A stretch of DNA of 64,000 nt from a virus. The notes below the pieces were generated by a model, which was not told the DNA's origin, did no database searches, and worked only from the letters and a program-made list of their open reading frames with translations. Below, in pieces: positions 2,739 through 19,813 of this stretch. Positions within the stretch are counted from its first letter, which is position 1, and each line of letters starts with the position of its first letter. The translations under genes were made by a program, and so were the position numbers. The DNA is taken from positions 89,515-153,514 of the IMG/VR virus record IMGVR_UViG_3300046167_000554, one strand, 5' to 3'.

Positions 2739-2944
2739 TGGGAGTAAAGGTAGACGGACACTCAAAACTAGAACGAGATGAGAGTTCACACGCAATAGTT
2801 AATACTGATATGGAACAGTATAGACTTGCAAAGAAACGAAAAGAAGTATTTCATAATCAAAAAAATGAAATAAATACATTAAAGGAAGAAGTATCTGAAA
2901 TAAAAGGACTTCTTCAGAATATTTTAGGAAAATTAAATGGCTAA
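2738..2944 (+). CDS. Small conserved T4-like hypothetical protein with coiled-coil C-terminus
   Basis: ATG overlaps the upstream TAA; MGVKVDGHSKLERD...SHAIVNTD. Confidence 0.7.
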   Translation: MGVKVDGHSKLERDESSHAIVNTDMEQYRLAKKRKEVFHNQKNEINTLKEEVSEIKGLLQNILGKLNG

Positions 2945-4190
2945 GACTGTAGACACATTCAGTACTATTGAAGACTTCAGAGTCAGGTATAACGAACTTG
3001 CAACTGATGTCGGAGATAAGTCGGGACTAAGAACTCAACAAACGGGTACTATTATTGATGCTGTAAATTCTATAGAAGATAAATCATTCTTCTTCCAAGA
3101 GTTTATTTACAATGTAACATCATCACAAACAGTATTCAATGGAGACGATGCATTTGATAATTCCTTACTTTTCAGAAGAGATAGAATTCAAGTATTCCAT
3201 ATAGATGGTGGAGTAAGTAAACACTTACTAGAGGGTAATGACTACTCTATTGCATCACCTGATGGAAATCTTCATAAAGAAATTCAATTAAACGTAGCTG
3301 CAGAAAGTGGAGATAAACTAGTTGTTTACTCATTCACTGGTTCTTACTTAGGAACTGTTTCAAGTGGAACAGGTGCAGTTGGATACTTCTCAGAAACATC
3401 TGCAAACACAATCTATAATAACAATGATAGTGGAATAATTTTAAATGGAACTTCAGTAGGAAGAACTACAGCACTTGAATCAGGTTATGAAATACAATTA
3501 GCAGGTGAAACATACGTAGAAGATAACGTAACACTTGCAACAAGTAAGACACTTACTGCACCTACTTTGACTACAGGTGGTGCATCTATTACAGGAACAA
3601 CTGGAACAGGATTTACAAACATAACATCCACATTGTTTAGTGGTAATGTTAATGGTACAACTGCAACCTTATCGGGTACAGTTACTGGTGGTTCTTTAAC
3701 AGATGGTACTTTAACTTCTACAGGTGGTACTATTACTGGTGCAGCTTCTATTACATCTACAAAATTCGTAGGTGATGTCTATAAGGATGATGGAACCACA
3801 AAGATTTTAGAAAACTCAACGGGTGCATTGACTGGTACAGTATCTAGTTTATCAAACCATGATACCGATGACCTTTCAGAAGGTACTGCAAAATTCTTTA
3901 CTGATGCAAGAGCAAGAAGTGCAATTAGTGTTGGTGGAGATTTAACATATAATAGTAGTACAGGTGTGATTTCCTTTACTCAAACTGAAGGTGATATCAC
4001 TGCAATTACTACAAATAGTAGTAGTGGTTTGTCAGGTGGAGTCACAGTAGGAGCAGCTTCTTTGTCTGTAAATACATCGAATGGTGTGAAAAAAGTAAGT
4101 AATAATGTAGTTTTAGATTATGAGACTGTAAGTTCTGCACCAAGTAGTGTTGGTTCAACTTCAACTGGTCACTTATGGTTTGTGATATGA
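2937..4190 (+). CDS. Tail fibre-like structural protein
   Basis: T/G/S-rich, 'DTDDLSEG..KFFTDARAR' fibre repeat, C-terminal 'SSAPSS..STGHLWFVI'. Confidence 0.65.
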   Translation: MAKTVDTFSTIEDFRVRYNELATDVGDKSGLRTQQTGTIIDAVNSIEDKSFFFQEFIYNVTSSQTVFNGDDAFDNSLLFRRDRIQVFHIDGGVSKHLLEGNDYSIASPDGNLHKEIQLNVAAESGDKLVVYSFTGSYLGTVSSGTGAVGYFSETSANTIYNNNDSGIILNGTSVGRTTALESGYEIQLAGETYVEDNVTLATSKTLTAPTLTTGGASITGTTGTGFTNITSTLFSGNVNGTTATLSGTVTGGSLTDGTLTSTGGTITGAASITSTKFVGDVYKDDGTTKILENSTGALTGTVSSLSNHDTDDLSEGTAKFFTDARARSAISVGGDLTYNSSTGVISFTQTEGDITAITTNSSSGLSGGVTVGAASLSVNTSNGVKKVSNNVVLDYETVSSAPSSVGSTSTGHLWFVI

Positions 4191-4191
4191 T

Positions 4192-5499
4192 ATGTCAGAC
4201 GAAATATATTTAAATACTGGTACAACGATACAACAGCCCTATCAAGCGCAAGGGCCTGCTAACGCACAACAACCCGTTATTGCACAACAGGTTAGAAACT
4301 ATACTGCTAATGCAAGACAACCTAGTGAGTATCAGACTCGTACACCATTTACATATAGAAATCCAAGTAATGCACGTCAACCTAGTATAAGGAATACACA
4401 AAGTCCCTTTACATATGCAAGACAAGGTCAATCACCATTTACGTATAACTTTAGGTCACCTAGTACATATACAAGACAGGGTCAAACACCATTTACATAC
4501 AGTCATAGACAACCTATAACATATGCAAGACAGGGTCAAACACCATTTACGTATGATTATCAGTCACCTTCAACATATAGAACCCCTGTAAATCAACAAG
4601 AACCTAATATAAGGAGTAAACAATCTCCTTTTACATATGGTCATCCAGCAGCTGCCCAATCACCTTTTACATATAACTATAGAAGTCCGTTTACGTATCA
4701 AAGAACTGGTCAGTCACCATTTACATATCAAGCAACTGGGACAACACCAGTGATATACAGTTACCAACAACCTTTTCCGTATATTGCAAATGGACAGCAA
4801 CCAAACATAAGGAATGCACAACAACCATATCCATATAGTACTACACAAGCATCTTCCCATCAGCAACCAAATTTAGCAAGTGGAAGACAACCTTACATAT
4901 ATGCAGCGTACACTTATCACAATACTGGTTCTACAGGAACTACTGCCCCAGTATATCAAATAGATGTTAGTTCACAAGACCAAAATGATGCGAATGCTTA
5001 TATTTGGGTTAAAACTGTAGGAAGTAATTTAGAAGTATATGTATCTGCAAACTTCGACAATTATGCTGACTTTACATCAACAAGTGGTGGCAGTGGGACT
5101 ATAAGTACTAACACTAATTATAAAGTTGCAACATTGGTAGATGGAGCTGGGTATAAAGTAAGATATACAGCAGGTAGTTACTATAATATAACACAAGAGG
5201 GTGGTGAACCTACAGTAATAGGATTAGTACTAGCAAGTAATGTTCCAAACTCAACCAGTACAACTGGTGGTGTTACTATAGGAACAAACTCACTTTGGGG
5301 GTCAGGTAGTGTTCATTATGTACGTTCTAGAGTTCGTGCTTTGCCAGATGAAGGATTTGAAGGAATCGGAAGTGCTGGTGCGTCTGTAGATATAAATCTA
5401 TTCTTTGATAAAACAGGAGCTACAACTATCTCATACCCAATTTCAATGATGTGTGAAACAGATTTCCCTGAAGAGGAAGAAGAGGAAGAAGGAGTATAA
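4192..5499 (+). CDS. Pro-punctuated repeat protein A (repeat arm plus C-terminal globular domain); partner of 5503
   Basis: PFTY/PNIR/PYPY units at 4273-4890, then a non-repetitive ~200 aa domain and acidic tail FPEEEEEEEGV. Confidence 0.8.
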   Translation: MSDEIYLNTGTTIQQPYQAQGPANAQQPVIAQQVRNYTANARQPSEYQTRTPFTYRNPSNARQPSIRNTQSPFTYARQGQSPFTYNFRSPSTYTRQGQTPFTYSHRQPITYARQGQTPFTYDYQSPSTYRTPVNQQEPNIRSKQSPFTYGHPAAAQSPFTYNYRSPFTYQRTGQSPFTYQATGTTPVIYSYQQPFPYIANGQQPNIRNAQQPYPYSTTQASSHQQPNLASGRQPYIYAAYTYHNTGSTGTTAPVYQIDVSSQDQNDANAYIWVKTVGSNLEVYVSANFDNYADFTSTSGGSGTISTNTNYKVATLVDGAGYKVRYTAGSYYNITQEGGEPTVIGLVLASNVPNSTSTTGGVTIGTNSLWGSGSVHYVRSRVRALPDEGFEGIGSAGASVDINLFFDKTGATTISYPISMMCETDFPEEEEEEEGV

Positions 5500-5502
5500 A
5501 CC

Positions 5503-6324
5503 ATGCCTACAGGACAACAGCCATATATATACCAACACCAAATCGTGTTCCAACAGGTAACTATTACTGAGCTTCAAGGACAGTCTCCTTTTACTTATCA
5601 ACATCAGTCTCCTTTTACTTATCAAAATTCAGGAAGAAATCCTATTGCTAATGTATCTGCACAACAACCTTTTCCGTATATTGCAAATGGACAGCAACCT
5701 TATCCATATATTGCAAATGGACAAGAACCAAACATAAGGAATGCACAACAACAGTTCTTTTATCAAGACCAAAGGAATGCAAGACAACCTATTATCTATC
5801 AACATAGGTCTCCACTTACATATAGAAATCCTGTTAATGCACAAAATCCTATAAGTGGAGTTAATGCACAACAACCTTACCCTTACATTGCAAATGGTCA
5901 AAGTCCATATATTGCAGATGCACAACAACCATATCCGTATACTGCAAATGCACAAAATCCAAGTATCGAATCTGCACAACAACCTTATCCATATATTGCA
6001 AATGCAAGAAACCCTAGTACATATCAACATAGGTCTCCACTTACGTATAGGAATCCTGTATCGGGTCAACAACCTCATATTGTAAATAAACAATCACCAT
6101 TTTTCTATACAGGTTCTTACCAAGTAGCGTATGCATATAGAAGTCCATTCATTGCACAAGTGCAACAACCCTCAACTAGACCTGTAGGCCCAGTTGCAAA
6201 AGTAAAAGGAATATACCGAAATAATAACGGAACTGTAGAGAAAGTAAACCAAGTATATGTAAATGATGGTGGTTCTTTAGAAAAAATTCATCAATCTGTA
6301 CCTACTGCTCAGTTTCAGAAATAA
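5503..6324 (+). CDS. Pro-punctuated repeat protein B; antiparallel complement of A
   Basis: Repeat units at 5521-6144; C-terminal 'VKGIYRNNNG..VNQVYVNDGG' adaptor-like motif. Confidence 0.8.
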   Translation: MPTGQQPYIYQHQIVFQQVTITELQGQSPFTYQHQSPFTYQNSGRNPIANVSAQQPFPYIANGQQPYPYIANGQEPNIRNAQQQFFYQDQRNARQPIIYQHRSPLTYRNPVNAQNPISGVNAQQPYPYIANGQSPYIADAQQPYPYTANAQNPSIESAQQPYPYIANARNPSTYQHRSPLTYRNPVSGQQPHIVNKQSPFFYTGSYQVAYAYRSPFIAQVQQPSTRPVGPVAKVKGIYRNNNGTVEKVNQVYVNDGGSLEKIHQSVPTAQFQK

Positions 6325-11236: not shown

Positions 11237-13207
11237 TGGCAGGCGAAAAGAATTTTAATATTAAAAATGGTCTATCCGTTGGTGGTGTAGAAGTTATAAC
11301 TAGTGCTGGTGCCTTTTAACAGGTACAGCAATTGTAGAATCAATTGACGATAGAGTCAATGCTCTATTAGTGGCAGGAACAGGAATCACATTAACATATG
11401 ATGATTCTGCTGGAAGTTTAACAGTATCAGGACAACAAGGTGATATCACAGGTATCGTTGCAGGTGCCTTGGTCTTACTGGTGATGCAACTTCAGGTGAT
11501 GCAACATTAGCAGTTGGTGCTGGAACAGGTATTACTGTAAATGCAGATGACATTGCAATCGACCTTAAAGATGAAGATGACATGTTATCAGACAGTGCAT
11601 CTCACGCTGCATCACAGCAGTCTATCAAAGCATACGTTGATGCAAGTATCTTAACAAAAGATAATACAGACGAGATTACAGAAGGAAGTTCAAACCTCTA
11701 CTTTACTGCAGAAAGAGTTGCAGATACAGTTGGTGGAATGGTCGGTTCAAATACAGAAACAGGAATTACAGTCTCATATGACGATAGTGATAACACTTTA
11801 GACTTTGTAGTTGGAACACTTAACCAAAATACAACAGGTAGTGCAGCTACTTTAACTACTCCAAGAACTATTTCAGGTACTGCATTTGATGGTTCTGCAG
11901 ACATTACTTTAACGACTGCTGGAATTACAGAAAACACAAACCTATACTTCACAAACGAAAGAGTTGACGACAGAGTTAATTCTTTAATTGTTGCTGGAAC
12001 AGGACTTACATCTACATATGATGACAGTGCTGGAACACTTACACTTAACGGACAAGTTGGTGATGTGACTAGTGTAGTTGCTGGTGCTGGTTTAACAGGT
12101 GGTGGAACTTCAGGTGACGTTACTTTAGACCTAGATGCGACAGTAGCAGGTGACGGACTTGCACACTCAAGTGGTGTTCTTTCCGTAACAGTAGATGACA
12201 GTTCAATCGAAACAGATTCAGACACATTAAGAGTCAAAGCAAGTGGTGTTACTAATGCCATGTTAGCAGGTTCTATTGCAAACAGTAAACTTGCAAATGA
12301 TAGTGTAACAGTTAACTCACAAGAAGTTGACTTAGGTTCTTCTATCACATTAACGACTGCAAATGTCGGTGAGAATACAAACCTTTACTATACAGACGAA
12401 AGAGTTGACGATAGAGTTAATGCATTATTGGTTGCTGGTACTAACATAACAACATCATATGATGACAGTGCTGGAACATACACAATTAACTCTTCAGGTA
12501 AAACACAAGAAGAAATAGAAGACATTGTAAACGGATTAGTAGTTGGTGGAACAAACATCACTTCTACATATGATGACGCTGCTGGAACACTTACACTTGC
12601 TGGATTATCAGACAGTGCTATCCAAGGTAAAATTACTGTAACGGATGCTGGTGGAGATGGTTCACTTGCATACAGTGGTGGAACAATTACATATACTGGC
12701 CCTAGTGCATCTGAGACAAGAGCTCATTTAAGTGCTGGAACTGGTGTAACATATTCAGGTGGTGCATTCAGTATTGGTCAGGCAGTTGCAACTTCAAGTA
12801 ACGTAACGTTTGCAGACTTAGTAGTAAGTGGTAACCTAACAGTTAATGGTGCTACTTCAACAGTAAGTTCTACTAATACAACAATGACCGACTCATTAAT
12901 TGAGTTAGGAAATGGAACTACTGGTTCTCCAGCTGGAGACGCAGGTATAGTCATTGAAAGAGGTGATGAAAGTAACGTGTTTATGGGTTGGGACGACAGT
13001 GCATCAAGTTTTGCATTCGGAACAACTACTGCAACAGGTGCTTCAACTGGTGCATTAACAGTGACACCAGCAGCGGTATCCACGGGTGCATTGACAATAA
13101 CAAATGCATCTAATAGTGGTGGAACTGCAAGAAATGTTTACCAATCAACATCAGCTCCTACGAGTGGTGATGGTGCGGTTGGTGATTTATGGGTACTTTA
13201 CTCCTAA
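11236..13207 (+). CDS. Tail fibre protein (5' part frameshifted; ORF track gives 11582-13207)
   Basis: MAGEKNFNIKNGL start at 11236; repeated 'ENTNLY.T.ERVDDRVN.L.VAG..IT..YDD.AG'; ends TSAPTSGDGAVGDLWVLYS. Confidence 0.7.
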
Positions 13208-13258
13208 TATAGGGGTTTAGTATCTCAATAAATAACAATAATTAATGGAATAAAGTAA

Positions 13259-14356
13259 ATGGCATCAGGTTCACAAAAAGTAAAAACACCAACAGGTTGG
13301 AATTCAACCCAAGGTGCATGGGTAAAGACAGGTTCTTCCACATGGAAAGCAGTCGACCAAATTTATGTTAAAACACCTACAGGGTGGAATGATGCATCAG
13401 GTCAAGAATTAACTCAAATACCTTATCCGTATATTGCAAATGCACAAGAACCAAACATAAGGGATGCACAACAACCTTATCCGTATATTGCAAATGCACA
13501 AGAACCAAACATAAGGGATGCACAACAACCATACCCTTACATTGCAAATAATCAGCAACCAAACATAAGGGATGCACAACAACCTTATCCTTATATAGCG
13601 AACGCAAGACAACCTTCTACATATCAACATAGAAGTCCATTTACTTACAGAAACCCAAGTAATGCAAGACAACCTAGTACGTATCAACATAGAAGTCCAT
13701 TTACGTATCAAAGAACTGGTCAAACACCTTTCACATATCAATATAGAAGTCCATTTACGTATGCTAGACAAGGTCAAACACCATTTACGTATAACTATAG
13801 GTCACCTAGTACGTATGCAAGACAGGGTCAAACACCATTTACGTATAACTTTAGGTCACCTAGTACGTATGCAAGACAAGGTCAAACACCTTTCACATAC
13901 CAGTATAGAAGTCCCTTTACATATGCAAGACAGGGTCAAACACCATTTACGTATAACTATAGGTCTCCGTTCACTTACAGGAACCCTGTATCTGCACAAC
14001 AACCTACTATTAAGAATGCACAGCAACCTACTATTAAGAGTGCTCAGCAACCTAATATAAGGTCAGCACAACAACCTAATATAAGGTCAGCACAAGAACC
14101 AAATATTAGGAATGCAAGACAACCAAATAACGCACAGAATCCATTTACGTTCCAAAACCCGTTTACATTCAATGCAAGACAACCAAACAATGCAAGACAA
14201 CCAAACAATGCAAGACAACCGAATAATGCAAGACAACCAAACAATGCAAGAAGTCCAAGTATTGCTCAACAGCCAGGCTCATATATCGCATACTTCCAAC
14301 AATCATATTTCTTTACATTTGGAAGTCCAAGTCAGTTCCCTGGCGAGGAACCTTAA
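13259..14356 (+). CDS. Pro-punctuated repeat protein C; partner of 14367
   Basis: N-terminal 'VKTPTGW..AWVKTG..WK..IYVKTPTGW' adaptor motif; 35 repeat units at 13421-14254. Confidence 0.85.
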   Translation: MASGSQKVKTPTGWNSTQGAWVKTGSSTWKAVDQIYVKTPTGWNDASGQELTQIPYPYIANAQEPNIRDAQQPYPYIANAQEPNIRDAQQPYPYIANNQQPNIRDAQQPYPYIANARQPSTYQHRSPFTYRNPSNARQPSTYQHRSPFTYQRTGQTPFTYQYRSPFTYARQGQTPFTYNYRSPSTYARQGQTPFTYNFRSPSTYARQGQTPFTYQYRSPFTYARQGQTPFTYNYRSPFTYRNPVSAQQPTIKNAQQPTIKSAQQPNIRSAQQPNIRSAQEPNIRNARQPNNAQNPFTFQNPFTFNARQPNNARQPNNARQPNNARQPNNARSPSIAQQPGSYIAYFQQSYFFTFGSPSQFPGEEP

Positions 14357-14366
14357 GGAGTAAATT

Positions 14367-15329
14367 ATGCCAATTGGATTTAGAGTCATACCATATCACG
14401 CACATGCAAGGACTTCTGTTAATGTACAGACGCCGTTCACTTTTCAAGCACCATTCACGTTTCAGGCACCCTTTACGTTTCAGGCACCTTTTACGTTTCA
14501 GAACCCGTTCATTGCACAAGCAAGACAACCGAATAATGCAAGACAACCTTTTACGTTTCAGAACCCATTTACGTACAATTATAGAAGTCCTTATACGTAC
14601 AACCATAGGTCACCATTTACGTACCAACATAGAAGTCCTTTTACGTATCAACATAGAAGTCCTTTTACGTATCAACATAGGTCACCATTTACGTACAGAA
14701 GTCCTGTATCTGCAAGAGAACCAAACATAAGGTCAGCACAACAACCTTATCCGTATATTGCATCTGCACAAGAACCAAACATAAGGTCGGCACAACAACC
14801 TTATCCGTATATTGCTAACAATCAACAACCTACGATTAAGAATGCACAACAACCTTATCCGTATATTGCTAACAATCAACAACCTAATATAAGGAATGCT
14901 CAACAACCTTATCCGTATATTGCAAATGCACAAGAACCTAATATTAGGTCAGCACAGCAACCTTATCCGTATATTGCTAATGCACAAGAACCTAATATTA
15001 GAAACAATCAAGCACCATTTACATACCAAAACCCTGTAAATGGACAAGAACCTAATATTAGAAACGCTCAGACTCCGTTTACGTATCAAAGAACTGGTCA
15101 AACACCATTTACTTACCAGTATAGAAGTCCTTCTACTTATGCAAGACAGGGTCAGACTCCGTTTACGTATCAACATAGAAGTCCGTTCACATATCAAAGA
15201 ACTGGTCAGACTCCATTTACGTATCAACATAGAAGTCCATTCACGTATGCAAGACAGGGTCAAACCCCCGAAGCAAGATGGGATGGAGTTGGTTCACAAC
15301 AGTGGCCTGCAACACCTATTAGTGGATAG
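14367..15329 (+). CDS. Pro-punctuated repeat protein D; antiparallel complement of C
   Basis: SD AAGGAG; 35 repeat units at 14433-15266. Confidence 0.85.
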   Translation: MPIGFRVIPYHAHARTSVNVQTPFTFQAPFTFQAPFTFQAPFTFQNPFIAQARQPNNARQPFTFQNPFTYNYRSPYTYNHRSPFTYQHRSPFTYQHRSPFTYQHRSPFTYRSPVSAREPNIRSAQQPYPYIASAQEPNIRSAQQPYPYIANNQQPTIKNAQQPYPYIANNQQPNIRNAQQPYPYIANAQEPNIRSAQQPYPYIANAQEPNIRNNQAPFTYQNPVNGQEPNIRNAQTPFTYQRTGQTPFTYQYRSPSTYARQGQTPFTYQHRSPFTYQRTGQTPFTYQHRSPFTYARQGQTPEARWDGVGSQQWPATPISG

Positions 15330-15350
15330 TACTAAAGTAAAAGAAAGAAG

Positions 15351-15372
15351 AGGGACTATGTCCCTTTTTTTT
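15351..15372 (+). terminator. Rho-independent terminator
   Basis: AGGGAC-TAT-GTCCCT followed by a T-run. Confidence 0.75.
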
Positions 15373-15388
15373 CGTCCTAAATATATGC

Positions 15389-16963
15389 ATGGAACATATT
15401 GAATCATTAGAAGACCTAAAACAGGTAGTAAAACCAAATCAAAACTATAGGGAAAAATCTTTCCATATTGGTAATTTCGATTTAAAAAGAGAAAAGACTG
15501 AAAAAGAAGAAGAGACTTTAAGTATGTTAGAGTACCTTTTTAATGAAATATGTCCACCATTAAAATATTTCACTTGGGGTGATTTTTTAGAACAAAGAAA
15601 GAAAGACAAATTTACGGGTTTCAATGGTTTACAGAACCAATCTTCTACCTACCACTACTTCTTACCACATGGTTATACTGCAGAGGTAAGACCCGAAAAG
15701 GTGACAAGAGGTCATGCTGGTATGGATATGAAGAATTTAGAAGGCTATATTGATATTAGAGACATTGCAAATTGGGAAGTTATTGAAGGTGGAAAGGATA
15801 AAGACCATCCACATGCATATGAAAGTCTTTCCTCAATGTATTACCATAGTGCAAAAGCACATTGGATTATACAAGACATCCAAAAGAATGGACTAATACA
15901 TCCTATTCAAGGTATAACAAAGGAAAGTGGAGACAAGTTTGGATTTGCAATTCATCCAGGCTCTGTTCGTTCAGGATGTTTTGAAGAGATGGAAGACCCA
16001 TCTATGGAAGTAATGATATGGGACAAACATGATGTCATTACTGGTATTGAACCAATGACATTAAATGATGCACTTGAGTTTTGGAAAAATAGATTAGAAG
16101 AACAGGATGCAGATGTATACAACGTATCCTTTATGTTCAATGAAGGTCATTTAGAGTTCCAACACGACCTATCTAATTTAAATTTCAGACCAAAGGTACA
16201 TGAGTTCAATAAGAAGGTACATGAACTTTCCAAAGGTAAACCCATCAATATTTACATTGGATATGATAGTAGACACACTACATTACCTGAAATTAATAAA
16301 CATTCTATACTCACCAGTATTAAAAGGGGTCTAGGTAATGGTTGGTTTCATGACCAAGTCAGATGGGAACCTGAGATTAAGTTCCTTGACAAATCTAAAA
16401 TTCCCGAGTATAATAGAGAGTATGCAAATCAATCTACTGAGTTTACATATAGTAGATTTCTAATTCCTTACCTAGAAAACTATGAAGGGTTTAGTATATT
16501 CTTAGATGATGATTTCATCTTTGAGAAAAGTATACTACCAATGTTCTATTATCTAAATCCTGATGATGCAGTTGCATGTGTAAAGTATCCACATTACGAA
16601 CATGATACAACTAAATTTGATGGAGAAGTCAACATAGATTATCCATGTAAGTTGTGGTCAAGTCTAATGGTGTTTAATAATGGACATGAAGATTGCAAGA
16701 AACTAACACCCGAAGTTGTTAACACTTGGACTGGAAAACAGTTACATCAGTTTGAGTGGACAGATAAGATTAGTGAGATACCTCAAAAATATGTCTTTGT
16801 AGAGGGTTATGATGACCCCAAAGAGAAGTGGGATTTTACTGCAATTCACTATACAAGAGGTGGCCCATGGGTAGAAGGTATGGATTTTAGTGGTATAAAT
16901 AATTTGGAACACTATAATAAGTGGTTAAACAAACATAAGAACGAGGTAATTAATAATGAATAG
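15389..16963 (+). CDS. Unknown N-terminal domain fused to a GT-A glycosyltransferase
   Basis: C-terminal half has IYIGYDSR, STEFTYSRFLIPYL, DDD (DxD), WSSLMVFN and HYTRGGPW motifs. Confidence 0.75.
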   Translation: MEHIESLEDLKQVVKPNQNYREKSFHIGNFDLKREKTEKEEETLSMLEYLFNEICPPLKYFTWGDFLEQRKKDKFTGFNGLQNQSSTYHYFLPHGYTAEVRPEKVTRGHAGMDMKNLEGYIDIRDIANWEVIEGGKDKDHPHAYESLSSMYYHSAKAHWIIQDIQKNGLIHPIQGITKESGDKFGFAIHPGSVRSGCFEEMEDPSMEVMIWDKHDVITGIEPMTLNDALEFWKNRLEEQDADVYNVSFMFNEGHLEFQHDLSNLNFRPKVHEFNKKVHELSKGKPINIYIGYDSRHTTLPEINKHSILTSIKRGLGNGWFHDQVRWEPEIKFLDKSKIPEYNREYANQSTEFTYSRFLIPYLENYEGFSIFLDDDFIFEKSILPMFYYLNPDDAVACVKYPHYEHDTTKFDGEVNIDYPCKLWSSLMVFNNGHEDCKKLTPEVVNTWTGKQLHQFEWTDKISEIPQKYVFVEGYDDPKEKWDFTAIHYTRGGPWVEGMDFSGINNLEHYNKWLNKHKNEVINNE

Positions 16964-17513
16964 TTTAGTATATACAGAAGAGAGTAAGTTAATAGTTGAA
17001 AAACCTAATGGGTTAAAGTATGAATTTGATAATGTTGATGCTCCTGATTTAGGATTTGAGTATGATATGGTTGTCTATGATGACATAGAAGTCAAAGTTT
17101 TAAAGTGGGATGATGAGAAGGGTGACTTCAATTCACAAGATAAGATACCATTAACAAACGAAGAGAAGGATGCAATTGAAACTTACATTGCAAACTCTGA
17201 ACCACCTATTGGATGGAACCTGAACAATCAATATCTACAACAAATAAATGAAATTTGTCATCAATATGTTGATGATTGTTCTGAAAAGTATGGTTTTCAA
17301 AATCATATAGAGTGTACATATGTAGGAAGAGAGGGGTCAGCACATCCTTACAGAAGTAATGCAAAACGTGTACTAGAATATGCAGATGCAGTATGGTGTA
17401 TCTATGTACAGATTGCAGATGAAATTCAATCTACAAGAGAAGATTTATTAAAATCTATAGATGAATACCTTCAAGTTTTACCCGAAGCACAACAAGCTAG
17501 CTCCCGATTCTAG
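16956..17513 (+). CDS. Hypothetical protein, possibly tail-fibre-assembly chaperone-like
   Basis: Acidic ORF translationally coupled to the upstream gene; function is inference. Confidence 0.5.
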   Translation: MNSLVYTEESKLIVEKPNGLKYEFDNVDAPDLGFEYDMVVYDDIEVKVLKWDDEKGDFNSQDKIPLTNEEKDAIETYIANSEPPIGWNLNNQYLQQINEICHQYVDDCSEKYGFQNHIECTYVGREGSAHPYRSNAKRVLEYADAVWCIYVQIADEIQSTREDLLKSIDEYLQVLPEAQQASSRF

Positions 17514-17534
17514 ACAACAGTAAAAAGGTTTTCA

Positions 17535-18260
17535 GTGAAGATACATTATGTAACTGAACCATTCAAGTTATCAGAAATACCTTTAAAGGATGTTTATGTC
17601 TTTGATGATTTCTTATCTTCAGAAATGCATCGTGCAATAGATTCACATATATATCGTTCAAGTATATGGTCTAAGACAAATCAAGTTAGAGGAGATAGTC
17701 CTACTGGGTTAGCACATCATAGTTTTTGGGGTGCAACATATTTTCGTGGAGTAGAAGGTGGAAGTAAGAAAGTAGTTGATAATGATATGAATCCAAGGGA
17801 TACTTATCTTGCACAATGGTTTAATAGAAAGATACAAACCGACTTTGGATTTCAGTGGGTCAGATTTCAATACATGGGACTGAATTCACAAACACAAGGT
17901 CTTCAAGGAACAACACATGCAGATTGTTCACCTGAAGATGAGTGGAATCTTTCATTTCTTTACTATACCAATAAATTTTGGAATAAGGAATGGGGTGGTT
18001 CATTGAGATTTTACGATGAAATGCAACAAGGAATTGATGGTAGAGATGAACATATTAAAAATCATCAAATTGGTGAAGTAGAGTTTAAACCCAACAGACT
18101 GTTAATGTTTGACGGAAGAATTCCACATGGTGCAGATGCACCTTCTCCTAAAGCAAGATATATGGATAGAAAATCCATTGTTCTTAGAGGAGACGAAATA
18201 AGATTAATAAAAGATACAAGTGAGTGGTTTCATGCCAACGATAGAATTTACAACATTTAA
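17535..18260 (+). CDS. 2OG-Fe(II) oxygenase (prolyl-hydroxylase-like)
   Basis: HAD...LYY..W..EWGG.L.F...PNRLLMFDGRIPH...R facial-triad pattern. Confidence 0.8.
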   Translation: MKIHYVTEPFKLSEIPLKDVYVFDDFLSSEMHRAIDSHIYRSSIWSKTNQVRGDSPTGLAHHSFWGATYFRGVEGGSKKVVDNDMNPRDTYLAQWFNRKIQTDFGFQWVRFQYMGLNSQTQGLQGTTHADCSPEDEWNLSFLYYTNKFWNKEWGGSLRFYDEMQQGIDGRDEHIKNHQIGEVEFKPNRLLMFDGRIPHGADAPSPKARYMDRKSIVLRGDEIRLIKDTSEWFHANDRIYNI

Positions 18261-19116
18261 TACAAAAACACTAGAGGACTTTAGGCCTGTTCTTGCTAAG
18301 AAACTTACACCTGAGTGGTGGAAAAAAACTAAAGTTAATGTTGATGTACGAGGACATAAAGTGCAAACTATACGTTCTTGTCCTGCTATGGATGATTGGT
18401 TAAAGAGTGGTTGGTTGTTAACTGCAAATAGAGACATACATGTAGATTTAGAGACTGGTTCTGATAGTACTTTTAAGACAAGAGCTCATAATGGGTATGG
18501 TTCTCCATCTCATCCTAATGTGCAGACTGCAAATGCATTTGAATACTTAGGAGATTCAGGCCCTGTTAAGGATGCATTCAAAATGAAGAATCCATGGAAC
18601 ATAATAACTCCAAAGGGGTATTCATGTTTTTACTTAGACCCATTCTTATTTCAAAATGAATACTTTGCAACATGGCAAGGTATAATAGATACTGATAACT
18701 TTAATAAAAATATTGATAATGCACAAATCATATTCTACCCTAAAGTAACTCACTCATTTACTATAACAAAGGGTACTCCTCTTTGTCAAGTAATACCATT
18801 CAAAAGGGAGACTTGGAATGCATCTTACATTGTACAGGACTCACAAACCTTTACAGAGAATAGGTCTATAGTTACCTCTCATCATGATAACGAGTTTCCT
18901 ACTATGGACGAGATGGGTAGACATAAGGGTCTATCGGAAGAGGAAAGAAAGATAACTGGTAAGATGGGTGCATATAGAAAACAAGGATACTGGCAAGAGA
19001 AAGGTAAAAACTTTAAACAAGATAATCCACCACCTGAATGTCCTATGCATGTGGTCAGTGAAGACACACCTGAAATTCAATTAGAACTTCCAATAGGAGA
19101 CAATAATGGCAGTTAG
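18220..19116 (+). CDS. Conserved phage protein found with oxygenase clusters (DUF6065-like)
   Basis: 'TIRSCPAM.D...GW', 'NPWNIITPKGYSC', 'KGTPLCQVIPFKRE'. Confidence 0.55.
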   Translation: MSGFMPTIEFTTFNTKTLEDFRPVLAKKLTPEWWKKTKVNVDVRGHKVQTIRSCPAMDDWLKSGWLLTANRDIHVDLETGSDSTFKTRAHNGYGSPSHPNVQTANAFEYLGDSGPVKDAFKMKNPWNIITPKGYSCFYLDPFLFQNEYFATWQGIIDTDNFNKNIDNAQIIFYPKVTHSFTITKGTPLCQVIPFKRETWNASYIVQDSQTFTENRSIVTSHHDNEFPTMDEMGRHKGLSEEERKITGKMGAYRKQGYWQEKGKNFKQDNPPPECPMHVVSEDTPEIQLELPIGDNNGS

Positions 19117-19813
19117 ATTACTATTTCCTACCTTTATATTTGAAGTAGATTTACTTAATGATGATTTACATCCTAATGATGGACTCACTAAAGAGTACCT
19201 AAATCTATTAAAAGATACTATGGATGGAATGAGACAAAGAGACCCCGAAGGACGAAGAATATCTAATGCATATACTGGGTGGCAATCCAACGATGGTTGT
19301 GAAACAAATCCAATATTTGCACAACTACATAAAAAGATATCACGAGTCTTTCAGAGAGAGGTTATTCCATTTCATGGTTTGGACTCATCAAATGCAGTCA
19401 TGCAAATGGGTAATATGTGGGCAAACATAAACGATTTTAGTGCATGGAACAAACCACATTTACATAATGGGTGTTGGTATAGTGGTGCATTCTATATCCA
19501 TGCAGATGGAGACGAAGGTTCTTTAGATATTATAGATAAAGACTGTAAGGTCGTATCAGACTTTCCACATTCAACTAGAACACCTACATCTTATAGTATT
19601 CAACCTACATCAGGAAAGTTAGTGTTGTTCCCTAGTGGTACTATGCATATGGTAGAACCTAACATGACAAACAAAGAACGTTATTCAGTTGCATTTAATA
19701 TTGAAATGAGATATCAGACTAATGAAGGTAGATATCCAATAAATGAAGATACTTACAATGGGGACGAATTTAAATTTGAAATAGACCCTAATGGAGACCC
19801 CATACTGAAGTAG
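19106..19813 (+). CDS. Putative 2OG-Fe(II) oxygenase (TIGR02466-like)
   Basis: LFPT..., WANIN....N.PH.H...YSGAFY, G.LVLFPS..MH.V.PN....RYSVAFN. Confidence 0.8.
   Translation: MAVRLLFPTFIFEVDLLNDDLHPNDGLTKEYLNLLKDTMDGMRQRDPEGRRISNAYTGWQSNDGCETNPIFAQLHKKISRVFQREVIPFHGLDSSNAVMQMGNMWANINDFSAWNKPHLHNGCWYSGAFYIHADGDEGSLDIIDKDCKVVSDFPHSTRTPTSYSIQPTSGKLVLFPSGTMHMVEPNMTNKERYSVAFNIEMRYQTNEGRYPINEDTYNGDEFKFEIDPNGDPILK

Follow-up and report, generated by a model that had tools for sequence, protein, structure and literature searches.

Mirror-complementary repeat arrays in two adjacent phage genes: a probable two-chain antiparallel beta fibre in a marine T4-like myovirus

Why should two neighbouring viral genes encode repeat arrays that read, unit by unit, as reverse complements of each other at the protein level? 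The question is raised by genes C and D, which occupy positions 13,259 to 15,329 of a 64,000-nucleotide stretch of DNA (the window, positions 89,515 to 153,514 of the IMG/VR virus record IMGVR_UViG_3300046167_000554; the whole record is 153.5 kb long, with a completeness estimate of 81%). An original prediction made from the DNA letters had proposed that the two proteins zip together into a fibre. Our analysis of the sequences indicates that C and D are probably the two chains of one heteromeric antiparallel beta fibre, which would belong to the tail-fibre (host-recognition) block of an uncultured marine T4-like myovirus. The elements of the two genes on which the argument is built are the following:

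13259..14356, + strand: gene C, 365 residues, the first chain (from the list of open reading frames, ORFs)
13259..13420, + strand: N-terminal domain of C, 54 residues, with a V-K-T-P-T-G-W-N motif duplicated inside it (from conservation among relatives)
13421..14254, + strand: repeat array of C, 35 Pro-initiated units, 278 residues (from cutting at Pro)
14255..14353, + strand: C-terminal tail of C, 33 residues, rich in aromatics and with E-E-P as last residues (proposed distal end)
14367..15329, + strand: gene D, 320 residues, the second chain (from the ORF list)
14433..15266, + strand: repeat array of D, 35 units, 278 residues (from cutting at Pro)
15267..15326, + strand: conserved last 20 residues of D, with an R-W-D-G ... 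W-P motif (from conservation in D-like proteins; proposed proximal end)

The arrays were cut into units by splitting at Pro, the PY of PYPY units being merged with the next piece. This procedure reproduced exactly the coordinates of the original prediction, with 35 units and 278 residues per protein, and gave for C the length string 10,8,10,8,10,8,10,8,6,6,8,10,8,10,8,10,8,10,8,10,8,6,6,8,8,8,8,8,6,6,8,6,6,6,6. When this string is reversed it is identical to the string of D read forwards in 35 of 35 positions, as had been claimed. The facing units had also been said to be opposite in type, which holds for 34 of the 35 pairs with the classes used in that prediction, the exception being a hybrid 8-mer pair already named there. 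Typing by regular expressions, with aromatic units defined as those starting P-F/S-T-Y/F and polar units as those of the PNIR, PTIK, PNNA, PVSA and PYPYIAN kinds (ending A-Q/R-Q/E), gave opposite types in all 35 pairs. A shuffle control, which the original prediction had proposed, placed this agreement well outside the range of random orders: 200,000 shuffles of the D units produced a mean of 12.5 length matches (standard deviation 2.8, maximum 24). Furthermore, 1 of the 5040 orders of the seven blocks of D scores 35, a parallel alignment of C and D has 11 length matches, and the number of length strings possible with this unit composition is 3.7e14.

An origin of the mirror at the DNA level, either as an inverted repeat or through coding on the opposite strand, was rejected. 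The DNA repeats in 13200-15400 are direct, apart from two chance-level 20-nt inverted matches, and the opposite-strand frames over C and D code for unrelated peptides. Because DNA operations cannot reverse a protein, the mirror must be a selected property of the proteins themselves. The same 35-unit architecture is present in two other samples (L001 and L002, 93-96% identity), and since these contigs are independent it is not an assembly accident of this record. As a separate observation, C and D are each self-complementary around their own 8,6,6,8 junction, where 8 of 9 unit pairs match; by analogy with a nucleic-acid palindrome, a lone C or D could possibly fold back as a hairpin, representing a misfolded form or an assembly intermediate.

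If the mirror is functional, it should be preserved while the arrays change. C has 445 homologues in databases, and an IMG/VR scan with C as query yielded 80 loci, 70 of which contain adjacent C-like and D-like genes according to a motif filter. After correction for non-ATG starts there were 51 distinct pairs, with D proteins of 233-559 residues. In one of these loci (L006:5483-6784) the D-like gene begins with GTG, and calling ATG starts only cuts ~89 residues from it, leaving a spurious 320-nt gap and a spurious length mismatch with its partner. The Pro-anchored antiparallel alignments of the 51 pairs cover 216-548 residues, and most of them contain 0-2 gap columns. They beat the parallel alignments in 49 pairs, the remaining two being ties. 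In most short-ended pairs C exceeds D by ~45 residues (+/- ~5 residues) across a two-fold range of lengths. Equal-length facing units add up to 2094 in these pairs, and 1922 of them (92%) are of opposite class; 166 are polar-polar, mostly variants misclassified by the regular expressions or xGY 6-mers facing each other, and 6 are aromatic-aromatic.

The extent of this co-variation becomes clearer when each unit is written as one letter (length x class), so that every array becomes a word. The D word approximates the reverse complement of the C word across 37 different words, which lie a median of 25 letters apart by edit distance; the agreement includes identical runs of up to 56 letters, and most mismatches result from the crude two-class typing. 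Taken together, the 13 verbatim-perfect words are separated by no fewer than 85 unit-level edits, every one mirrored in both genes. For 46 of the 51 C proteins no other D mirrors the sequence better than the cognate one, ties included. Single events can also be recognised. In L003, C carries 18 additional residues (an aromatic 10+8) and D carries 18 additional residues (a polar 8+10) at the mirrored site, and in L005 both genes have 10,8,10 in place of the 6,6 junction, three 8-mers turned into 6-mers and three 6-mers lost. Insertions and deletions in C had been predicted to be mirrored in D among relatives, and the compensatory changes in L003 and L005, together with the 37 words that keep the mirror, bear this out. 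Equally good scores of shuffled controls, named in the original prediction as speaking against it, were not obtained: the shuffled and non-cognate controls lie far lower.

These data also bear on the idea that the mirror is a functionless by-product, i.e., the relic of a split fold-back gene, a symmetry of the DNA or an assembly artefact. Tandem repeats do tend to slip and to mis-assemble, and each chain keeps the hairpin potential mentioned above around its 6|6 junction. However, there is no inverted DNA repeat, the architecture recurs in independent samples, and compensatory indels have occurred recently, between relatives of 82-96% identity. Moreover, slippage-prone arrays would quickly lose the mirror without selection, and 37 words retain it. 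We consider this explanation already largely refuted and give it next to no credence.

The pairing can be followed down to individual residues when facing units are placed in register with Pro opposite Pro. In this register Tyr4 of the aromatic units is opposite Ala, Gly or Ser in >75% of units and in all length classes, Thr3 is opposite Gln/Arg, Arg7 of the 8-mers is opposite Ile3, and Gly8 of the 10-mers is opposite Tyr4 of PYPYIAN. The 8-mers form two orthogonal pairs: one joins the PNIR kind to units carrying His/Tyr6 and Ser8, the other joins the PYIA kind to units carrying Asn/Ala6 and Gln/Tyr8. In the loci containing both, the sub-pairs match in 598 of 642 cases, compared with 464 +/- 7 in within-locus permutations. 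Covariation is strongest between position 2 of the aromatic unit and the last position of the polar unit in the 8-mers (z 59), and between position 6 and position 2 in the 6-mers (z 71). Changes at the N-terminal end of a unit are thus followed at the C-terminal end of the unit opposite, which is what an antiparallel contact predicts. The original prediction had described the arrays as a six-letter string; its aperiodic complementary order stands, but an alphabet of six is too small, as two orthogonal 8-mer pairs, a 4-mer pair and a self-type xGY 6-mer were seen.

Alternatively, C and D could be separate parallel homotrimers and the mirror could come from a shared constraint, for instance if both docked, in opposite directions, on a third component with a pattern of its own. 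A parallel homotrimer is the form of nearly all known phage fibres (PMC3004832), and any sequence pairs in register with itself. Nevertheless, such an arrangement leaves the opposite types of facing units unexplained (aromatic-aromatic in 6/2094), as well as the orthogonal 8-mer sub-pairs and the covariation of facing unit ends, and the module contains no third gene with a matching pattern. We regard separate homotrimers as very improbable.

The conformation of the arrays is suggested by their periodicity. Of 4605 Pro-Pro spacings, 4600 are even, and the composition of the two parities is different: F/Y/W account for 31% of even positions but are absent (0%) from odd ones, Ala/Gly for 21% of even and 2% of odd ones, and Pro for 28% of odd and 0% of even ones. 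A strict two-residue phase maintained over hundreds of residues points to extended beta strands, so that a beta conformation of the arrays is supported at the level of sequence, with one face that would carry the aromatic-versus-small pairs and another that would carry Pro and the polar residues. In standard antiparallel-sheet geometry, having the Pro residues all on one parity lets each Pro-Pro pair occupy a non-hydrogen-bonded site, and this would explain why the unit lengths are only even.

The strands could instead run perpendicular to the axis, with C and D forming an interleaved two-chain cross-beta solenoid in which each unit is a rung or a face of a ~15-20 nm rod. The units of 6-10 residues bounded by Pro, and the block periods of 18 (10+8 or 6+6+6) or 16, resemble the turns of beta-solenoids, and the triple beta-helix of T4 gp5 consists of octapeptide repeats (PMC3004832). 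In a solenoid, however, a rung touches two partner rungs one turn apart, so that an exact one-to-one mirror across 8,6,6,8 or 6,6,8 would be unneeded, and the widths of the faces would clash where blocks meet. The covariation follows instead the end-to-end antiparallel register of the units. Finally, AlphaFold2 and ESMFold2 gave no fold although solenoids are usually recognised, which is weak evidence. A solenoid seems to us unlikely.

In the antiparallel fibre that we favour, the two 278-residue arrays would lie side by side as extended beta strands running in opposite directions. The Pro of each chain would face the Pro of its partner, each aromatic unit would face a polar unit of equal length, and on the even-numbered face the Tyr/Phe of one chain would be set against the Ala/Gly of the other. 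With both unit types in both chains and an aperiodic order, only the cognate partner would fit, in one register and with one length, in the manner of DNA strands. The array would be ~90 nm long (278 residues x ~3.3 A). The proximal end would consist of the N-terminal domain of C and the C-terminus of D, and would probably connect to the upstream fibre protein at the conserved C-terminus of the latter. The C-terminus of C and the N-terminus of D would make up a variable distal end, which in relatives would bear a tip or a self-cleaving Hint domain. The assembled fibre, presumably a component of the virion, might be a single duplex or three duplexes packed through their aromatic faces. Co-variation, compensatory indels, controls and periodicity thus argue for the antiparallel, register-locked pairing of the original prediction, while its term 'two-stranded' should be taken as a minimum, because three duplexes in a trimer are just as possible.

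The window contains a second pair of genes of the same kind:

4192..5499, + strand: gene A, 435 residues, first chain of a paralogous mirror pair (a repeat array followed by a ~195-residue C-terminal globular domain)
5503..6324, + strand: gene B, 273 residues, second chain of the paralogous pair (from a gapped antiparallel alignment with A)

Their arrays use the same unit types as those of C and D, and both genes sit behind another fibre gene. Aligned antiparallel over 243 columns, 5 of which contain gaps, A and B show 24 Pro-Pro coincidences; the parallel alignment has 14. This mirror is less perfect than that of C and D. Cross-matching of A and B to D and C gave 16 and 13 coincidences, compared with 36 for C and D. 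The two pairs therefore do not mirror each other, and the phage appears to encode two orthogonal duplexes. The C-terminal domain of A ends with an acidic run and has 4 representatives in 1.84 billion proteins. We lean, with some reserve, towards a protein analogue of nucleic-acid hybridisation, in which at least eight short beta units (4-, 6-, 8- and 10-mers, two orthogonal 8-mer pairs and a self-type 6-mer) would pair specifically in antiparallel orientation and are arranged in an aperiodic order that would encode the partner, the register and the length of the fibre. The A/B and C/D duplexes would then assemble orthogonally in one cell, and paired gain or loss of repeats would tune their length.

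How might the C/D fibre be attached? In the antiparallel alignment the N-terminal domain of C and the C-terminus of D fall at one shared end. The former is near-invariant in the six closest relatives and was found in every C-like protein used; in the latter, residues R304, W305, D306, W313 and P314 are invariant across 35 D-like proteins. The gene that precedes C is conserved with the pair:

11582..13207, + strand: upstream fibre-shaft gene, 541 residues, first of a conserved three-gene module (PHROG structural and tail-fibre matches)

The conserved C-terminal ~30 residues of its product (13118-13207) end G-D-L-W-V-L-Y-S, and an ORF with this C-terminus stops 19-53 nt before the C-like gene in 48 of 48 checkable loci. 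The synteny of the three genes is therefore constant in these loci, and the remainder of the upstream protein varies from ~410 to 968 residues among the loci with a full ORF, with a C-terminus that is almost invariant. From this conservation, the C-terminus is likely the docking site for the proximal end of C/D. The coincidence of the conserved ends of C and D, together with the invariant upstream C-terminus, suggests a three-way proximal joint. Membership of the pair in a tail-fibre module follows from synteny, i.e., from the PHROG matches of the upstream gene and from the C-terminus shared by 48 of 48 loci. Moreover, the C/D block corresponds to the variable region that has been described in pelagimyophages and cyanomyophages as the host recognition cluster (PMC7029224). 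The fibre gene that precedes A and B (2937-4190) has a G-H-L-W end motif related to that of the 11582..13207 gene.

The opposite end is variable. By a rule based on length and motifs, 28 pairs have a short tail, 6 have a Hint/intein-like domain and ~15 have an extra domain of ~140 residues. The Hint/intein-like domain sits right after a Gly run; L050 looks Hint-bearing too, and both L017 and L050 were misfiled by the rule as 'other'. Hint-like ends after a Gly run and a Cys can be seen at L022:4001-5614, L079:4001-5302 and L030:4001-5410, and in the proteins P0121, P0122 and P0124; L079 scores 45 bits on PF14890. The position of this domain suggests, by analogy, a self-cleaving distal C-terminal module with a role like that of the auto-cleaving chaperone domains of other phage fibres.

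The ~140-residue tip domain shows a different behaviour within and between phages. Comparison of the C-like with the A-like chain of one contig (L056/L111, L045/L140, L057/L151, L052/L147 and L047/L113) gave 87-95% identity, and comparison between contigs gave 26-80%. These values suggest that the tip evolves in concert on the two fibres of one phage, and being uniform inside a phage and divergent between phages is how a host-recognition module behaves. An AlphaFold2 prediction of the tip domain of relatives had a pLDDT (predicted local distance difference test) of 45.9, too low for a fold search. In all six extra-domain loci that were inspected, an ORF of ~100 residues lies between the C-like and the D-like gene (L037:5640-5960, L031:6170-6440, L043:2400-2700 and L047:5550-5870 among them), and we regard its product as a candidate tip-specific assembly chaperone.

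A chaperone function could also be assigned to D itself, as a co-evolving template that pairs only transiently with C during folding (or the reverse) and is absent from the virion. D is located directly 3' of C, and phage fibres often need a chaperone encoded directly downstream, e.g., gp38 for T4 gp37 (PMC3004832). However, the conserved end motif of D coincides with the end formed by the N-terminal domain of C, which suggests a joint attachment site, and both unit types are distributed symmetrically in both chains, so that neither resembles a client or a template. The small extra ORF of the tip-domain loci suits the role of chaperone better, and antiparallel pairing would still be required. 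For these reasons we hold a chaperone role of D to be quite unlikely and retain the two-chain fibre as the preferred reading.

We also looked for C and D in databases. Pfam has no match for C and no convincing match for D. A hit of D to the trappin cementoin family PF10511 (28.1 bits, cut-off 27; C has no match to it) covers 17 residues at one unit junction and is best read as compositional; we do not place the protein in that family. PHROGs contain no family for C or D, PDB chains gave no match to either at E<=1, and tblastn with whole C and D against GenBank phages gave no match in a cultured phage, although the low-complexity filter blunts this search. The N-terminal domain of C and the C-terminal region of B, which are not low-complexity, have no homologue in 50,697 GenBank phage records. 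Searches of the literature on the motifs and on heteromeric antiparallel fibres returned nothing relevant. The original prediction knew of no described phage fibre of this kind, and we likewise found no precedent in Pfam, PHROGs, PDB sequences, the 50,697 GenBank phage records and the literature searched. A feature search of the ESM Atlas gave chance-level scores, that of a gp37_trimer cluster (0.81) being likewise at chance. A prediction of the full-length 1:1 complex of C and D with alignments of close relatives had a score of 0.00 and a partner pLDDT of <50, and counts neither way.

Several known fibre classes were rejected for the pair. Homology of the gp37 type received no match in the Pfam, PDB (E<=1) and Atlas searches. 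The core of the gp37 needle contains iron held by His coordination; a single-chain needle of this type with HxH was discarded, as in C/D the two directions are two genes and the units carry at most one His, with no HxH periodicity. A triple beta-helix like that of gp5/gp12 does not agree with three unit lengths, at least two complementary types and no V-x-G pattern. A collagen-like fibre does not agree with periods of 6, 8 and 10, with a Pro spacing that is even in 99.9% or with Gly that is rare and not triplet-spaced. A coiled coil does not agree with a Pro each 6-10 residues and a period of 2, and AlphaFold2 predicts no helix. In addition, a search for a fused single-chain C-D among longer proteins returned only Hint-bearing A-like proteins and P0126, which is weak evidence that this unit family has no fused form. 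P0126 (645 residues) has an A-like N-terminus and a B-like C-terminal domain and is fusion-like, with degenerate halves that mirror each other no better than shuffles. The 153.5-kb record contains no self-mirroring ORF.

With regard to the surroundings of the pair, the structural genes come closest to those of the Methylophilales phage Melnitz, at 40% identity, and of T4-like cyanophages, at 36%, and psbA was not found in the 153.5-kb record. A sigma-70 promoter scan gave no signal above shuffles. Two short elements flank D:

14357..14360, + strand: ribosome-binding site GGAG, which abuts the C stop codon and is followed 6 nt later by the ATG of D (from reading of the sequence)
15351..15372, + strand: terminator-like hairpin with a 6-bp stem and a 3-nt loop followed by seven T, 22 nt past the D stop (from reading of the sequence)

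Judged by the spacing of the GGAG, C and D are tightly, translationally coupled. The hairpin was also called on the opposite strand in the scan. Directly 3' of D, the interval 15389-19813 contains a GT8-like glycosyltransferase match that is weak and falls short of the Pfam cut-off, two ORFs without assigned function, and genes for two 2OG-Fe(II) oxygenases (PF13640 and PF13759); these products might conceivably modify the Pro-rich fibre chains.

Some points must be weighed against the antiparallel fibre. The case is built on sequence. A ribbon of 90 nm that is two strands thick would be mechanically surprising, so that a higher-order assembly has to be assumed. The 51 pairs share phylogeny and unit counts are therefore not counts of independent events. 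Imperfect pairs amount to 5 of the 51 (L004, L008, L014, L017 and L029), and in the first four of these the chains differ by ~18, 44 or 88 residues; these mismatches are whole repeats and may be either collapsed tandem-repeat assemblies or real uncompensated variants. The AlphaFold2 model of D alone (35 relatives) has a pLDDT of 38.6 and no secondary structure, a result that is compatible with a chain needing its partner and also with disorder.

If the proposed fibre is real, it would represent a new assembly principle, a long, aperiodic, sequence-addressed beta duplex made of two gene products, by which a phage would fix how long a thin fibre is and which partner it takes, with no need of a ruler protein. 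The fibre would also constitute an abundant unannotated class of fibre in the host-recognition region of marine T4-like phages. The hundreds of pairs would be a natural data set for deriving residue-level rules of beta pairing, and for protein design they would offer an orthogonal 'hybridisation' alphabet, with a code that is readable from natural sequences and reusable for programmable fibres. How two slippage-prone repeat genes remain complementary is an evolutionary puzzle in its own right.

Several known systems share part of these properties. Heterodimeric coiled coils are built of alpha-helical heptads, are usually parallel, and have a periodic pattern that permits sliding. As in C/D, two different chains are involved and a periodic positional code sets partner and register; unlike coiled coils, C/D would be antiparallel, with a period of 2, aperiodic letters and a Pro each 6-10 residues that excludes helices. 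In streptococcal antigen I/II the stalk is formed by one chain, whose long Ala-rich and Pro-rich repeats bring an alpha helix together with a polyproline-II helix. It resembles C/D in being a long thin stalk of complementary repeat regions running in opposite directions, with a functional domain at the far end, but each of its arms has one kind of repeat, whereas C/D has two chains, both unit types in each, a beta signature and unit-by-unit pairing. In the tandem beta-zipper, disordered fibronectin-binding repeats of bacteria dock on pre-folded F1 modules of host fibronectin. The extended repeat peptide, the antiparallel strand addition and the matching of successive units are as proposed for C/D, with the difference that in C/D each partner is itself an extended repeat array and the two are encoded next to each other in a single phage operon.

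Among phage proteins, the triple-stranded beta-helix of T4 gp5 and gp12 shares with C/D the short beta repeats (octapeptides) and the intertwined chains, but it is a parallel homotrimer with one repeat type and a Gly kink, and has no second gene, mirrored order or type complementarity (PMC3004832). The nearest structural analogue is the needle at the tip of T4 gp37, which according to PMC9659904 is thin, with antiparallel strands along the fibre axis and a receptor-binding head at the turn (Bartual et al. 2010, cited therein). As proposed for C/D, up and down beta strands pair along the axis in a T4-type fibre, and we count as a further likeness that a dedicated chaperone gene adjoins gp37 (PMC9659904). 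In gp37, however, each chain of a six-stranded homotrimer of ~15 nm supplies both an up and a down strand, and there is no repeat code, whereas in C/D they would come from two genes and be placed in register by a repeat code. The C/D array, with 278 residues (to ~550 in relatives), also contrasts with the short gp37 needle, and has no sequence similarity to it. In none of the systems compared do two separate genes, beta pairing in antiparallel orientation and an aperiodic string of complementary units occur together.

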